Shown: one piece after another, positions 2,482-57,759 of the stretch | How positions within the stretch are numbered: the first letter of the stretch is position 1 | Layout: the number at the start of each line of letters is the position of its first letter | DNA from: Dictyostelium discoideum | Lineage: Eukaryota | Direction of reading: 5' to 3' | NCBI GenBank assembly: GCA_000004695.1 | Contig: CM000151.3 | Span: forward strand, 6,016,001 to 6,080,000 | DNA: 64,000 bases | The notes under the pieces: model-generated | Told to the model about the DNA's origin: nothing | The model's input: only the letters and a program-made list of their open reading frames with translations | The model's database searches: none | Program-made: the position numbers and the translations under genes

Positions 2482-5400
2482 ATGGATAAATTTAAAGGTA
2501 AAATAAAAGGGATATCCCAACAAAGAGGGGAGCAAGGAAAATTTCAATTTGATTTTAAACTTATAAGTGTTGAAAATTTACCAGTTACTGGTAATTGTTT
2601 TGTATCATGGAAAAGAGGTACAAAATCAGCAAGTAACGGGAAAACAAAAGCTGTTACAATCAATTCAAATAAATCAGCATCATTTAATCATTCTTTTTCA
2701 ATGGTTACAACATTATATAAAGAAAAACCACCAAAGAAAACTTATGAATCAAAAACTATTGCAATTTCAATTAAAGATGTAATTATTATTTTATTATTAT
2801 TATTAGTTATTATTAATTATTATTACTATTATTATTATTATTTTTTATTCTTTTTTTATTTTTTTTTTTTTATTTTTTTTTATTTTAAACCATGTAAAAA
2901 TTAAAGATAAAAATAAAAAATTTACAACAGGATTATTTTTTTTTATATTTATTTTTATCTTTAATTTATTTTTATCTTTTTTTATTTATTTATTAATTTA
3001 TTAATTAATTTATTTATTTATTTATTAATTTTATAATAATAAAAAAATGATATATATATATTTATTTATTTATATAATTATTTTAGGAAAAAAATAAAAA
3101 ATCAATTGCAAAAACAATGATAGATTTAGCAGATTTTACAAATTTTAAAGATGAACAATTTAAATCAATTCAAATTAAACAAAAAAAGGGTGGACCAATT
3201 GTAATTGCAATGAATATAAAGAGTAAAGAGATGGAAATTAATCCAGATGATGAACCAGCAACAGAGACCGATTTAAATTCAAATGATGGTTCCGATGATG
3301 AAGATGGTGAAGATTTTGAACAAGATGAGGATAACTCATCATCGTCATTAAATACCAATAGTAAATATAGTAATACCAATAATATCACTGGTAGACTAAA
3401 TGATGATGATATTTTAGCACCAACAAATGGAGGTGGTGGTGCTTTTAAAAAGATGTCTGCACCAATTTCATCAACTAAATCTGAATCAATTTCATCCAAT
3501 TCATCCACACCAACTAAAACATCAACACCATCAACACCACCATCACATTCAGTTGAACCAACAACCACAGTGAAACCATTTAGTAATGATACAGAGGCAG
3601 AATTGAATGCATTACTCTCAAAACCATCATCTAAACCAAAAACTATAGCAGAACCTGTAAAATCAACACCAGTAGTATCATTATCATCTGCTTCCAACTA
3701 TAATCCAGGTAAAGATAAAGATTGGAAGAGAGAAGCTGATGATGCAAATCATAGAGTTCAACAATTGGAGAGACAAGTGGAAGTATTACAAAGAGATTTA
3801 AAAATGAATCAAAACATTGCAGCCAATGGTGGCGGTGGTGGTGTATCACAACAAGAGTTTGCGGATTTAAAGAAAAGATTTAGAGAGATTTCAGGTGATA
3901 ACATTGATTTAGAGGATAAAGTTAAGGAATTGGAAGAGAAATTAGCAAATGCATACAGACAACAACCAATCTCACAAGCGGCAGGCGGTGCAAGTAGACA
4001 ATTAACCGACCTCCAAGAACAAGTACGTCAAAAGGATGCATCTATTCAAGAGTTAAATATAAAGAATAGACGTTTGGAAAGAGATCTTCAAGATAAGGAT
4101 CAAGAGATTGCAGATCAAACTGAACAAGTTAAATACTATCAAGAACAAGTTAAATCTGCTCAATCCGCTGCACAAAAAGCTATTGCTGCCGCAGCTGCAG
4201 CATCCTCCTCATCAAGTGGACCATCAAATGAAGAGGCACAAGAGGAGATCGCATACTTAAAGAGAGAAATACAATTATTGAAGGATCAACAACAATCATC
4301 ATCGGTTGCAGTTGGTGGTGGTACATTAGAGTTAAAGAGAAGAATTCAAGATCTTACCAGAGAGGTTAAAGAGAAAGACGATGCATTGGCTAAATTGAAA
4401 TTGGGTGGATCACCAACATCAGCAGGTGGTTCATTATCATCAATTGCCGCACAAACCTCTAGTAATTTAACCATTACAAACCTTGAGAAACAAAACACAG
4501 AATTGAATAAAACATTATTAACACAACAACAAGAGATCGATAGATCAAAACAAGAGATTCAACAATTACAACAACAACTTTCACAAGCACAAAAGAAGAT
4601 CAATAGTGTTACCAATTCACCACCACCATCAGTCATTACCACAGAGGAACTATTGAAACGTGAAAATGGTGACCTCAAAGATAAAGTTGCCGCTCAACAT
4701 CACGAAATTAAACGTATTCAAGAGAAATATGATCAATTGAATTCAAGATTCAATGATGAAATCGAAGAGACCAACAATGTAGTCAATGAATTAAGACAAC
4801 GTGAAGAGGGCCTTGCTAGAAAGGTCGAAGAGTTAACTCAAGAGAATCAACAAATGGAACATAGATTGGCCAATGAAATGACATCCGCTTCAGCATTGAG
4901 TATGTCTGCAATGTCTGCACCAAGTAAATTTAGTTCACAAAATAGAGATAAAGATAGACAAGAAAGAGAAAATGCAGAGAGACAACTTGAACTCGCAAAA
5001 ACTGAATTATCACGTGAAAGAGAGAAAACCAAGAGATTCGATAGAGAACTTAAAGACTGCAGAGAACGTATTCGTCTCTTGGAACTTCAAGTTGAAGAAG
5101 GTGGTGGTTCAGTTATCAAACAAGAGAATCAAGATAAGGTTGAAAGTAGACTCATCGAACAATGTATTTACACTCAACCATTGACTTTTGTCGATGGTAC
5201 TGGTTCAGTTGCTTCATCATTATACGAACAACTCACTGATATTTGTGCATTCAGTCAAGAGAATGGTAAACTCTTTACCAAAGTTTATACAGCCCTTCAA
5301 CAAGCACTCGAAAGATCAATGTACAATTCAACAGATTTAGCCTATTGGTTATCAAATATTGCTGGTCTAATCCATTTAATTAAAGATGGTCCAAACAATA

Positions 5401-6287
5401 TAGACGATGATCGTGATCCAATTATCGATGGTATCCTCATCATGCAAAATAATAGTTTCTCTTCAACATCTCAAAGAAAAACTCCATCTCAAACTTTTTA
5501 TTATCAACTCGAAAACCTTTTAAGAGAATCCTACTCATTACTTTTACATAGTATTTATAACAAGTTAAGACCAAAATTAACAAAAATAATTAGTTTTGGT
5601 ACATGTATTTTAGATAAAAAAACGTAAGATTTTTTTTTAAAAAAAAAAAAAAAAAAAAACTTTATATTTATTTTAATATTTGAATTTATACTAATTTTTA
5701 TTTTATTTTATTTTTATTTTTTTGAAAGTAATAGATTTTCAGCAGCAGAAAATGATGCAGATATTAATAAGATTTGTAATATTTTACAAAAGTATATAAA
5801 TTTATTAAAGGATAAATTTATTTTTGATTCAATTATTCAACAATTCTTTTCACAAACTTTCCATTTCATTAGTTACACATTATTAAATGAAGTTTTAAAT
5901 GGTGAGAATTATTGTACACCAAGTTCAGGTTTCAAAATTAAATTAAGTTTATCTAAAATGGATGATTGGTTATCTTCATCAGAAGAAAGAGAATTACTTT
6001 TACCAGCAAGAGATCATTTTATGTCAATCATTGAAACTGCTAATCTTATGGTAATCGATAAATCAATTTTCACAGATTCTGATAGTGTTATCTCTGCTTT
6101 TGAAACTTTGAATATCCTCCAAATTAAAAAACTTTTAGAAATCTGGAAACCTGATAATCTCTCACCTGATCCAATTCCAAAGAAAATCATTGCAAGTTTA
6201 AATCAACAATTGGACTTAAATACTCATCAAAGAAATCTTGTAGTTGATCCAACAATTTTAATTGATGTTCAACCAAAACTCTCTTAA
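2482..6287 (+). CDS. NT-C2 domain / long coiled-coil / C-terminal DIL (dilute) domain protein, 3 exons
   Basis: Exons about 2482-2778 (donor gtaatt), 3087-5623 (acceptor ttttag; donor gtaaga) and 5729-6287 (acceptor aaag; intron 105 nt keeps the frame). Exon 1 gives an NT-C2-like N-terminus (KFQFDFKLISVENLP...CFVSWKRG). Exon 2 is heptad-rich coiled coil. Exons 2 and 3 encode a DIL-like domain (LAYWLSNIAGLIHL...SGFKIKLSLSKMDDWL). Frames checked across both junctions. Confidence 0.75.
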
Positions 6288-6498
6288 AATTTAAAAAAAT
6301 AAAAATTAAAAATAAAAATAAATATAGTAATAATAATAATAATAATAATGATAGAAAACAAATAAAATAAAATAAAATTTAAAAAAAAAAAAAATTTATA
6401 GTCCAAAAAAAAAAAAAAAAAAAAAAAGATCCAAGAATAAATTTTTTTTTTTGTTTTTTTTTTTTTAAAAAAAGTATAATAATAAATAATATTTTTTT

Positions 6499-7089
6499 TT
6501 ATTTTGTTGGAATATTCATACGAATTAATTTTGCAGGATTACCAGCAATAATAGAATTATCAGGGAATGATTTGGTGACAACAGAACCAGCACCAACAAT
6601 AACGTTATTTCCTAAAGTGACACCAGGTAAAATTATAACATTACCACCACCCCAAAAATTATCACCAATTGTAATTCCTTTTGTAAAATTTTCATCTGAT
6701 CCGCCAATTCTTTCAGATGGTTCGAATGGGTGTGTAGCTGTATATAATTGAGAGTTTGGACCAATCATTGCGCCATATCCAATTCTAATTGGACCATCAT
6801 CATTTAATATGCAATTATGATTAATAAAGAACTTATCTCCAACATGAATATTAACTCCATAACTAACTTTAATACCTTCACGAACAATCACAATTTCACC
6901 TGTTGAACCAAATAACTGTTTAATAATTTCTGGTCCTTTTTTACCATCATCTTCATCACTACCAATTAAATTATTAAATTGTTTATTTAATCTTCTTGCA
7001 CGTAGTCTTAATTGATCTAATTCTGGATCTTCAAATCTATATCTTAATCCTGTCACCATTTTCTCTCTTTCTGTTAATACCGGTTCCAT
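6499..7089 (-). CDS. Maltose/galactoside O-acetyltransferase (Maa/LacA family, left-handed beta-helix hexapeptide repeats), intronless
   Basis: 196-aa ORF ([11 protein letters not shown]...[40 protein letters not shown]...[25 protein letters not shown]) colinear with bacterial Maa. Confidence 0.9.
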
Positions 7090-31985: not shown

Positions 31986-32491
31986 TTAATTTATTAATTT
32001 TATTATTATTATAGTTTCATTTAAAATGCTAGCAGGTGAAAAAGGTTATATTACAGTGGAAGAGTTTTTATCAATTTTAGAATCAATCTATTCTTCATTA
32101 ACAAATTTAACTATTGTAACATGTAATCCACAAGCATTTCTAAAAAGATTATTCCCTGAATTTTCATTTAGTTATCAAAGAAAACAAAAACTATTATTAC
32201 AACAACAACAACAATTACAGCAGCAACAACAACAACAACAACAACAGCAGCAACAAAAATCATCATGGTCCTCAACTTCACCTTCACCTTCATCAACTAC
32301 TAATTCTCTTAGAAATAGTTTAAGACTATCAAGAGCTATAGATAATAATAATAATCATAATAATCATAACCATAATCATAATAATAGTAATATTAACAAT
32401 GAAGATGATTTAAATCTTGATTCAGATTCAGACTCTGATTCATTCCCAACACCATCAACCTCTCCACTTTTATTTAAAATTGGTATAAAAA

Positions 32492-32531
<40 letters not shown>

Positions 32532-32545
32532 GCAACAACAACAGC

Positions 32546-32583
<38 letters not shown>

Positions 32584-34557
32584 GAACAACAGCAACAACA
32601 ACAACAAGAAAACCAACAAATAATAAAAGATGAGAATGAAACAGTAGAAAATCAATCACAAGAGATAAAGCAAAAAGAAGATGAAAATCAAAAAGAAGTT
32701 GAAAATCAAAAACAAGATTTAAAAAATCAAAAAGAAGAAAAAGAAGAAGAGGAAGAAATAAAGGAACAAAGAAAATTTGAAACCAAAAATGATAATTTTG
32801 TTCAAGTTAATACAAAGAAATCAGTTAGAGGTAGTATATTTTTTGCACCATTAGATTCACATGAAAAAATTAATAATATTTCAAGTATTGGTAATCATAG
32901 ATCTTTAATTAGAAATAGTAGTAGTAGTGTATTAGATAATAATAGTAATAATAGTAATAATAATAATAATAATAAAAACAATAATGAATCTACAGCAACA
33001 CCAAATACAACTAATTCAACAACACCAATTACATCAGCAACAACATCAACATCATCATCTCCATCATCATCATATAAAAGTCAATCATTACCAGATTTAC
33101 CATCACATATACCAAAAACACCAACAAAATCATCAATTATAAATAATAATAATAATACATCAAAAACAATAACAACTAAATCATCATCATCATTTGAAAA
33201 TGGTTTAAATAATAGTGGAATTGATAATAATTATATTAGTAAAAAAGAAAAAATTGAAAATGATAAAGTTTTTCAATTAAATGGTAGAATTTATTTTAAA
33301 GAATTTAAACAAGCATTATCAGATAATTTATATTTTGTAAAGAGTTTAGGTTTAGTTAATCATTATGAAAATCCATTGATTAGAGAAACTGAGGGTAATG
33401 ATGGTCTATTGGTTAATCATTCATCGAATTGGGTAACATCACAAGGTAAAGATGTATCAATTGGTCATATAAATTGGGAGTTAATTCAATATATTATGAT
33501 TGGTATTAGAAGGTCTGCAGGTGAAGCCATCGTACTAACCAATAGAGCAACATTGAAGCCTAAAGATTTTGAAATGGTTGTTGAATTCAAATATGATGGT
33601 TGGACATTCAAAGATCATTACCCATTAGCATTCAAAAAGATTAGAGAAAGATTAGAAATTGATCCAAAGATGTTTATGTTTTCCTTGGGTCCTGAAAGAG
33701 TGTTTGGTAATTTACTATTAGGCAATCTTTCAGTGTTGAGTGAAATGAACTCTAGTGGTAAAAGTGGCAGTGTTTTCTTTAGATCGACAGAGGGTGATTA
33801 TTTAATTAAAACCATTCCAACACATGAAGAATCAATATTGAAAGCGGTTTTACCAACTTATGTACAGCATTTACAAAAATATCCAAATAGTTTATTAATA
33901 AAGATATTGGGTTGTTATACACTTCAAATAAAGGGTAAAGCAGAGATGAAATTCTTGGTCATGAATAACCTTTTCTTCACTCCATTACCATTGTCTGAGA
34001 AGTACGATTTGAAAGGCTCTGTCATCAATAGAAAAGTTGACAAGAATGATTTACTCTTACCTGATATCGCTTTAAAAGATCAAGAATTTCATAGAATACT
34101 CGATATTGGCCCAGAGTTTAAAGCACCATTATTAGAACAAATCGAACATGATACAATGTTTTTAGAATCTCATAATATCTGTGATTATAGTTTATTGGTT
34201 GGCATTCATACTATAGATGAAAATTCACCATTGGCTCTTTCGGATGATGATGATCCTGATCTTTCAAATGTGGGTGGTGTTAAAAGAGACACTTGGAAAG
34301 TATTGGAAGAAGAATTCTTTAAAAAAACTAGTGGTAAAATCTCTTTATTTCAAAAGAATTTTGGTGGTATCCTTTCAAAAAATAAAAAAGAAGTTTATTT
34401 CATCGCTATCATCGATACTTTTACCGCTTGGGATTGGTGGAAAAAGTCTGAACGTGCCTTAAAATTCTTGGGTAATGATTTAGATAAAATATCTGCTGTT
34501 AATCCAACTGATTATCGAAAAAGATTTCAACATTATGTTTCAAAAATTGTTCAATAA
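29706..34557 (+). CDS. Large multidomain phosphatidylinositol-phosphate kinase: N-terminal unknown domain, ankyrin repeats, C1 (DAG/phorbol-ester-type) zinc finger, NCS-like EF-hand pair, poly-Q/N linkers, C-terminal PIP5K catalytic domain; 2 exons
   Basis: Exon 1 is 29706-31932 (donor gtaatt at 31933). Intron of 82 nt contains poly(A)30. Exon 2 is 32015-34557. Ankyrin motifs (PIHVAVERMNVQLVKYLIERKADVNIKDNQGWSPLHF...). C1 domain (HPFYPHVFVFIDFPAGTTHCSYCKYLLWGIRKQGFQCEVCSYIVHSRCK). EF-hand region spans the splice (FDKQIQ|FSFKMLAGEKGYITVEEF). PIPK motifs (GKSGSVFF, DYSLLVGIH, IIDTFTAWDW). The alternative donor at 31982 is rejected by frame. Confidence 0.8.
32488..32630. repeat. (CAA)n/(CAG) coding microsatellite (poly-Gln about 45) in PIPK exon 2
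   Basis: Direct inspection. Confidence 0.9.

Positions 34558-55470: not shown

Positions 55471-57759
<2,289 letters not shown>

Follow-up and report, generated by a model that had tools for sequence, protein, structure and literature searches.

A motor-less Dictyostelium discoideum protein with an N-terminal NT-C2 domain and a C-terminal myosin V-type globular tail domain, a possible membrane-to-cargo linker

The gene DDB_G0275505 of Dictyostelium discoideum AX4 occupies positions 2482 to 6287 of the forward strand in the window analysed here, a stretch of 64,000 nucleotides (contig CM000151.3, positions 6,016,001 to 6,080,000) to which all coordinates below refer. It encodes a protein of 1130 amino acids in which an NT-C2 domain at the N-terminus and a globular tail domain (GTD) of the class V/XI myosin type at the C-terminus are held apart by a long interrupted heptad-repeat region, and in which a myosin motor is absent. 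We propose with moderate confidence that this protein is a dimeric linker, anchored to a membrane by the NT-C2 domain and capturing cargo with the GTD. It probably acts as a stationary connection between membrane and cargo and not as a motor. An earlier sequence-only reading had considered a membrane-to-cargo tether or a Rab effector, which is a reasonable suggestion to draw from the domains.

The gene is catalogued in the reference annotation and uncharacterised in function. Over its full length the translation is identical to XP_643599.1, EAL69503.1 and UniProt Q86IC6 (UniRef100_Q86IC6), located on a contig of 8,484,197 nucleotides, which carry the public names "hypothetical protein DDB_G0275505" and, in UniProt, "C2 NT-type domain-containing protein". 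Sequence, gene model and the assignment of both domains are thus already in the public record, and nothing new is reported at the level of sequence. DIL, the Pfam name for the core of the GTD, is said to be among the partner domains of NT-C2, either in the paper by Zhang & Aravind of 2010 that defined NT-C2 or in the InterPro entry. The parts of the protein are as follows.

2536..3248, + strand: NT-C2 domain (Pfam PF10358), residues 19-153, spanning intron 1
3246..3332, + strand: acidic motif DDEPATETDLNSNDGSDDEDGEDFEQDED, residues 153-181, Ser/Thr-rich, directly after the NT-C2 domain
3333..3707, + strand: S/T/N/P-rich linker, residues 182-306, assigned from composition; mean identity 0.24 across orthologues
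3708..5102, + strand: interrupted heptad-repeat rod, residues 307-771, about 465 residues in approximately eight segments of 29-87 residues
4302-4385, + strand: conserved island GGGTLELKRRIQDLTREVKEKDD, residues 505-532, inside the rod
5115..6284, + strand: myosin-V/XI-type GTD, residues 776-1130, spanning intron 2
5841-6158, + strand: Pfam DIL core (PF01843), residues 983-1088

The globular tail domain

A DIL domain had been expected at the C-terminus from the sequence alone. It was recovered clearly above threshold (91.4 bits against a curated cut-off of 24, E 4.8e-26, full profile covered), but the term DIL understates what is present, which is a complete GTD of about 355 residues as opposed to the 105-residue Pfam core. 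With phmmer, residues ~811-1124 match the GTDs of Myo5a, Myo5b and plant myosin XI. In a profile search of the PDB all closest solved structures were myosin GTDs, with E values of 1e-17 to 1e-19 over approximately 340 aligned residues; positions 14-355 of the dictyostelid profile align to positions 21-358 of the Myo5a GTD chain with an E value of 1.6e-17. An AlphaFold2 model of the GTD, built from 7 close sequences, was used for fold assignment only. Its top 30 Foldseek matches were all GTDs of Myo5a/b/c, MyoXI, Myo2 or Myo4, aligned over about 345 columns with TM scores of 0.43-0.62 (0.50-0.62 for the Myo5/XI chains), values that refer to a model of low confidence (pLDDT 61). Helical-bundle domains of exocyst subunits and Munc13 appeared only as distant followers of the myosin GTDs. 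According to these alignments and the model, both subdomains of the helical GTD of about 350 residues are present, at an identity to myosin GTDs of 14-20%.

The NT-C2 domain

The claim that the protein starts with an NT-C2 domain holds equally well. The domain search recovers it well above the curated Pfam threshold (87.8 bits against 25.2, E 7e-25, profile positions 5-142 of 143). Both terminal domains thus have bit scores of more than three times their curated thresholds, and there was no other significant Pfam match. The NT-C2 match crosses the boundary between exons 1 and 2 (residues 99/100). An AlphaFold2 model of residues 1-158, built on 31 family sequences, has a mean pLDDT of 89 and shows a single sandwich of eight strands, which lie on either side of this boundary. 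The top 50 Foldseek matches of the model in the PDB are almost all C2 domains, including those of Munc13-1 (C2B), E-Syt2, cPLA2, CEP120, ferlins and PLC.

All of 31 family members share residues R45, G46 and K91, and K20, W43 and G53 are nearly invariant. The W43-K-R45-G46 motif is encoded at 2608-2619; W-K-R-G-x-K is conserved and (K/R)-R-G is invariant across the family. A Lys/Arg-rich N-terminus precedes strand 1 in nearly all family members, and residues 1-155 have a net charge of +13. The NT-C2 domain of EHBP-1, from the same PF10358 family, binds PI(4,5)P2-rich endosomal membranes by way of two basic patches, and one of these is found at the very N-terminus before strand 1 (PMC4894640). 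EHBP1/EHBP-1 and EEIG1 share with the Dictyostelium protein the extreme N-terminal position of the domain and the basic residues before strand 1 (PMC4894640). From these prerequisites, a basic N-terminus and a conserved motif, we infer by analogy that the domain may bind lipids.

Absence of a motor and comparison with known systems

The earlier proposal that the protein lacks a motor is confirmed. In the 1130-residue protein Pfam detects neither a myosin head nor an IQ motif, and the myosin P-loop GESGAGKT is not present. Further exons cannot be accommodated upstream, where the neighbouring SDE2 gene ends at 2008, 474 nucleotides before the start codon, and where an mRNA contig described below begins at ~2457. 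Since it has no motor, the DDB_G0275505 product is no class V myosin. With the tails of class V/XI myosins (Myo5a/b/c, MyoXI-K and yeast Myo2/Myo4) it shares the complete GTD fold, the sequence family and a coiled coil that abuts the GTD, but the motor, IQ neck and P-loop are missing and an NT-C2 domain is found at the N-terminus instead.

EHBP1 and EEIG1 likewise follow an overall plan of membrane anchor, spacer and a C-terminus that binds partners. However, EHBP1 combines its NT-C2 domain with a CH domain and a Rab-binding coiled coil, whereas the Dictyostelium protein ends in a myosin-type GTD. A CH domain and a C-terminal bMERB domain (DUF3585) gave no Pfam match at E <= 1, and the C-terminus (…VQPKLS) has no CaaX box, so the protein is not an EHBP1 orthologue. 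Afadin/Canoe, RADIL and RASIP1 are also motor-less carriers of a DIL domain. These proteins combine RA, FHA, DIL and PDZ domains, and because RA, FHA and PDZ domains were not found by Pfam in the Dictyostelium protein, it is no relative of afadin or RADIL. The closest counterparts in layout are protist proteins in which NT-C2 is likewise followed by DIL, such as Heterostelium XP_020437976, Cavenderia DFA_06780, Pelomyxa KAH3766501 and KAH3745530, Balamuthia KAL6066397 and Anaeramoeba KAJ5074139. They differ in the spacer, which is not always heptad-like and varies greatly in length, as described below for the family.

Acidic motif, linker and rod

In the alignment of orthologues, conservation centres on the two end domains (0.62 and 0.63), with low values in the spacer between them. 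The acidic motif DDEPATETDLNSNDGSDDEDGEDFEQDED that directly adjoins the NT-C2 domain is the best-conserved stretch among the dictyostelid orthologues, with a mean identity of 0.81, and D/E-x-(M/P)-T-E motifs similarly follow NT-C2 in distant relatives (Pelomyxa, Mastigamoeba and a heterolobosean). It could serve as a phospho-regulated mask or as a partner site. The linker that follows is presumably disordered. Together, acidic motif and linker (residues 153-306, about 150 residues) stand between the NT-C2 domain and the rod.

The rod is rich in E, Q, L, K and R. A simple scan of a/d positions divides it into about eight heptad-compatible segments separated by about seven breaks, which include glycine runs at 347-351, 399, 509-511 and 539-547, a triple proline at 611-613 and an S/A-rich stretch at 700-722. 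The scan used a crude home-made heptad score with a shuffle control. Heptad windows cover 398 of 460 rod residues, against 106 ± 49 in 200 composition-preserving shuffles (maximum 219), and by this score the heptad periodicity of the rod exceeds what its composition gives. The coiled coil of about 500 residues expected earlier was therefore roughly right in extent (about 465 residues), but the rod is predicted to be hinged instead of continuous, and the linker preceding it had been overlooked. Coiled coils extend by about 0.15 nm per residue. If fully coiled, 465 residues would reach at most ~70 nm. Within the otherwise fast-evolving rod the island GGGTLELKRRIQDLTREVKEKDD is nearly invariant and may be a candidate binding site. 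Weak Pfam matches in the rod (SlyX, XLF_CC, Acb2_Tad1) and in a paralogue (Rab11-FIP3, CENP-F) remained below the cut-offs and were taken as coiled-coil noise.

The partner surface of the globular tail domain

In myosin-V GTDs, Rab11 binds to subdomain 2 and adaptor peptides, those of Spir and melanophilin among them, bind to subdomain 1 (PMC5021521). Rab11 binding by Myo5b requires Y1714 and Q1748, which are Y1721 and Q1755 in human Myo5a (PMC3858360); the glutamine hot-spot is numbered Q1753 of Myo5a in PMC5021521. To locate the hot-spots, an offset in the numbering of PDB chain 4lnz_A was assumed, and this offset recovers the spacings published for the four hot-spot residues. Pairwise and profile alignments then gave the following equivalents.

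5943..5945, + strand: Leu1017, at the position of Myo5b Tyr1714
6051..6053, + strand: Val1053, at the position of Myo5b Gln1748, inside the block ANLMVIDKSIFTD

The position of Leu1017 is occupied by Met or Leu in 31 of 38 family members and by Tyr in only 3. At the position of Val1053 a Val, Ile or Met is found (34 of 38), and never a Gln. In dictyostelids both positions are invariant, as is the block ANLMVIDKSIFTD. The Rab11 interface of myosin V formed by Myo5b Y1714 and Q1748 is not conserved when examined by alignment across these 38 members, and the partner of the GTD is probably not a Rab11 bound in the manner of myosin V. The location of Val1053 within a highly conserved block suggests that the same face of the GTD serves a different partner. 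A further difference from the myosins concerns Lys1706 of Myo5a, which is needed for head-tail autoinhibition (PMC3858360). Its equivalent is Glu1004, located in a variable and indel-prone loop, and this replacement agrees with a tail lacking a head that it could regulate.

A family in several protist lineages

Full-length orthologues occur throughout the Dictyostelia, with identities of 43-98%. The locus appears to be a single-copy gene in D. discoideum; no paralogue from this species surfaced in the family search, which is no proof of absence. When 1.84 billion cluster representatives were searched exhaustively with a profile, 776 matches at E <= 1e-3 were obtained, and the best 150 of these were re-scanned with separate hidden Markov models for the N-terminal and C-terminal modules. 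Among these 150, 36 non-orthologous representatives (512-1545 residues) have an N-terminal NT-C2 domain together with a C-terminal GTD, and the myosin P-loop was found in none of the 36. Pfam placed both domains above threshold in nine of ten family members tested, the tenth being a truncated transcript. This is the transcript of the jakobid Stygiella, for which the re-scan detected NT-C2 and part of the tail and Pfam recovered only NT-C2. Among the nine confirmed members are proteins of Pelomyxa, Mastigamoeba, Balamuthia, Vermistella, Phalansterium, Cavostelium, a heterolobosean and Anaeramoeba.

A second dictyostelid clade consists of longer paralogues (1290-1545 residues) from Heterostelium, Cavenderia, Acytostelium (two copies) and Polysphondylium violaceum (entries P0020, P0022, P0023, P0024, P0028 and P0173). 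The Polysphondylium violaceum protein was grouped with this clade although the re-scan missed its N-terminal module. The search returned no member of the second clade from Dictyostelium sensu stricto, and a loss may have occurred there. Other amoebozoan members come from Luapelamoeba, Pelomyxa (two copies), Mastigamoeba, Balamuthia, Vermistella, Phalansterium and Cavostelium. Beyond the Amoebozoa the layout is found in Heterolobosea sp. BB2 (Discoba) and in Anaeramoeba ignava, and in truncated form in Stygiella. Names were looked up for 20 family representatives, of which 16 carried names, and no animal, fungal or plant member was present among these 20. The architecture is thus that of a family distributed over several protist lineages and no local oddity. 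The Anaeramoeba ignava protein (KAJ5074139.1, entry P0099, 732 residues, NT-C2 and DIL) is publicly named "myosin-7", which is wrong since it is an NT-C2 and DIL protein without a motor.

Across the family the spacer between NT-C2 and GTD ranges from ~110 to ~1000 residues. A heptad segment directly before the GTD, as in myosin V, is present in 33 of the 36 members, and three members have no heptad signal. Because the spacer varies and the coil is kept in 33 of 36 members, the conserved unit is composed of NT-C2, a variable spacer, a short coil preceding the GTD, and the GTD itself.

Possible modes of action

In the preferred mechanism the protein would be built of five parts: an NT-C2 sandwich of the calcium-independent type, the acidic motif, a floppy linker, a segmented coiled coil of about 465 residues, and the complete GTD. 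Through the rod it would form a parallel dimer. In this arrangement the plan of a class V myosin tail is retained, with the motor and the lever arm swapped for a membrane anchor. The NT-C2 domains would keep the protein on an acidic, phosphoinositide-rich membrane, as is the case for NT-C2 of EHBP-1, and the paired GTDs would catch a receptor on a vesicle or organelle, that is, on another membrane or particle. The reach would be set by the hinged rod and would not exceed ~70 nm. The outcome would be static capture or retention of the cargo instead of transport. Lipid binding, dimerisation and cargo binding by the GTD are all steps that we infer. The dimeric linker is the best supported of the mechanisms considered because the NT-C2 domain of EHBP-1 and the GTD of myosin V provide precedents, and because the family has a basic N-terminus and invariant R45, G46 and K91.

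Several points weigh against this mechanism. That NT-C2 binds lipids is assumed on the basis of a single characterised relative. The dimer is likewise assumed from the home-made heptad score, and the rod contains many glycine and proline breaks. Confidence in the GTD model is low (pLDDT 61). As both Rab11 hot-spots of myosin V are replaced across the family, a cargo cannot be named. The long rod is no defining part of the mechanism, since the spacer varies from ~110 to ~1000 residues and three members are without heptads. In the literature searched, no paper on the gene, its accession or the combination of NT-C2 and DIL was found, nor an experimental datum on the protein or the family.

In a mechanism related to that of EHBP1, the NT-C2 domain would also reside on an endosomal membrane but a small GTPase would bind the C-terminal module and switch the linker on. 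The acidic motif at residues 153-181 may in that case mask the basic NT-C2 domain until the switch occurs. The N-terminal domain belongs to the same Pfam family as those of EHBP1 and EEIG1, and EHBP-1 is regulated by RAB-10, which binds its C-terminal coiled coil (PMC4894640). The high conservation of the acidic motif adjoining NT-C2 would also be in agreement with such a switch, as would the invariance in dictyostelids of the surface around Val1053, where Rab binds in myosin V. However, the CH and bMERB/DUF3585 domains and the CaaX box of EHBP1-type proteins are missing, masking by the acidic motif is pure conjecture, and no GTPase partner is indicated. We consider this GTPase-switched linker unlikely.

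Another option is that the protein acts as a brake or decoy. The motor-less GTD dimer would then take the organelle receptors used by the class-V-like myosins of Dictyostelium, either holding the cargo at a membrane bound by NT-C2 or just competing with the motor, and would in effect be a naturally occurring form of the dominant-negative "tail-only" constructs employed in experiments. This is in agreement with a GTD that is a full-length homologue of the cargo domain of myosin V/XI and that, like its counterpart in the motors, follows a coiled coil. The replacement of the head-binding lysine by Glu1004 in a variable loop also suits a GTD that has ceased to regulate a motor head (PMC3858360). 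Yet the identity to myosin GTDs is only 14-20%, and the Rab11 hot-spots differ family-wide, by which shared receptors are not indicated. A brake or decoy function thus appears quite improbable. Both this mechanism and the GTPase-switched one share the anatomy of the dimeric linker and differ from it only in the partners, which is a distinction that sequence cannot make.

The dimeric-linker mechanism can be extended to the family as a whole. Proteins with NT-C2, spacer and GTD would then form an ancient eukaryotic family that is the stationary counterpart to myosin V and docks organelles on phosphoinositide-marked membranes with a cargo-binding tail of the same kind, via a partner surface, the block around Val1053, with a specificity unlike that of any known myosin-V receptor. 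We regard this extension as tentative and rather doubtful. The cargo-binding tails of myosin V are normally studied within motors, and here the same module is joined to a predicted lipid anchor in many protists, among them an amoeba amenable to genetics. Should the protein prove to be a docking factor, it would offer a clean test of the role of a globular tail domain without a motor and would reveal the surfaces that set cargo specificity. For most readers it will be an ordinary uncharacterised multidomain protein of modest interest.

Gene model, transcript and splice sites

With 23% G+C and long homopolymer tracts, the window has the AT-rich composition typical of Dictyostelium. The gene is composed of three exons.

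2482..2778, + strand: exon 1, codons 1-99, ATG at 2482, GT donor at 2779, in-frame splice
2779..3086, + strand: intron 1, 308 nucleotides, G+C 5%, GT..AG
3087..5623, + strand: exon 2, codons 100-944 plus 2 nucleotides of codon 945
5624..5728, + strand: intron 2, 105 nucleotides, GT..AG in the reference model
5729..6287, + strand: exon 3, TAA at 6285-6287, with the acceptor at 5729 used by XP_643599.1

The spliced open reading frame of 3393 nucleotides is in frame and comprises 1130 codons and a TAA stop. Both introns have GT..AG ends, and the G+C content is 5-7% in the introns versus 26-35% in the exons. The three-exon model had been predicted to be frame-consistent across both introns; this is borne out, and the reference gene model is reconstructed exactly. 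The introns interrupt both domains, intron 1 lying within NT-C2 and intron 2 within the GTD.

Evidence from a transcript comes from contig L001 of the Logan assembly of run SRR24091725, which is 3479 nucleotides long with an Illumina adapter at its 5' end. It contains an uninterrupted open reading frame of 1129 codons with NT-C2 and DIL. The contig aligns to the window in three collinear blocks of 99-99.8% identity (2457-2782, 3087-5623 and ~5735-6326; exon 2 aligns to contig positions 348-2887 with 99.8% identity), and both introns are absent. Because of this collinearity and identity it is a spliced mRNA of a closely related strain. Its 5' end at ~2457 is about 25 nucleotides upstream of the ATG.

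The proposed junction 2778|3087 is present verbatim in this contig. For the junction 5623|5729 the donor at 5623 is exact, but the acceptor in the contig is 5735 and not 5729. It uses the AG at 5733-5734, so that the intron extends over 5624-5734 and exon 3 starts at 5735, 6 nucleotides downstream of the annotated site. This leaves the reading frame intact but removes Asn946-Arg947. Two 3' splice sites stand in tandem at the end of intron 2, in the region 5724-5736 (…gaaAG|TAATAG|A…). Since Asn946-Arg947 are invariant in all dictyostelid orthologues, the annotated acceptor at 5729 is probably also used. The two sites look like a tandem acceptor pair, for which the isoform ratio lies beyond a single contig.

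These results bear on the weakest alternative, in which the layout is an artefact of the gene model because exon 1 (or exon 3) is part of a different gene or an upstream motor exon was missed. Some predictions do divide the locus: another D. discoideum assembly (ACTFIR) splits it into two models of 1022 and 109 residues (entries P0015 and P0010), and prokaryote-style calling of open reading frames yields only the 836-residue frame of exon 2. Nevertheless, the NT-C2 match and its confidently predicted fold run across junction 1 and the GTD across junction 2, the uninterrupted frame of the mRNA contig starts close to the ATG, seven full-length orthologues have the same layout, and the SDE2 gene ends a short distance upstream. 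The continuity of the domains over both junctions, the mRNA contig and the orthologues refute such an artefact, to which we assign next to no probability. As the NT-C2 match and the modelled sandwich cross the first junction and the transcript joins exons 1 and 2, exon 1 is part of DDB_G0275505, as had been assumed earlier.

Genomic neighbourhood

The flanking genes are unrelated eukaryotic genes, and the genomic neighbourhood was rejected as evidence for function. The upstream gene (1175-2008, + strand) encodes an SDE2-family protein (PF22782, E 2.8e-28) with a poly-Gln run, a GGKGG motif and a poly-Thr/acidic tail. A 762-residue open reading frame at 55471-57759 (- strand) has no Pfam match at E <= 1e-5. 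A gene with a PIP5K domain, which makes PI(4,5)P2, is located at 32026-34557 (+ strand), about 26 kb away, with no functional link seen. The window also encodes an Ank+C1 protein, an asparagine synthase, an ABC-F ATPase, PDS5, a DEAD helicase, a kelch protein, a GH2 mannosidase-like open reading frame and a SpoU methylase. The convergent downstream gene (6499-7089, - strand) encodes a hexapeptide-repeat protein resembling maltose/galactoside O-acetyltransferases (Mac cap and Hexapep), a bacterial-type enzyme family.

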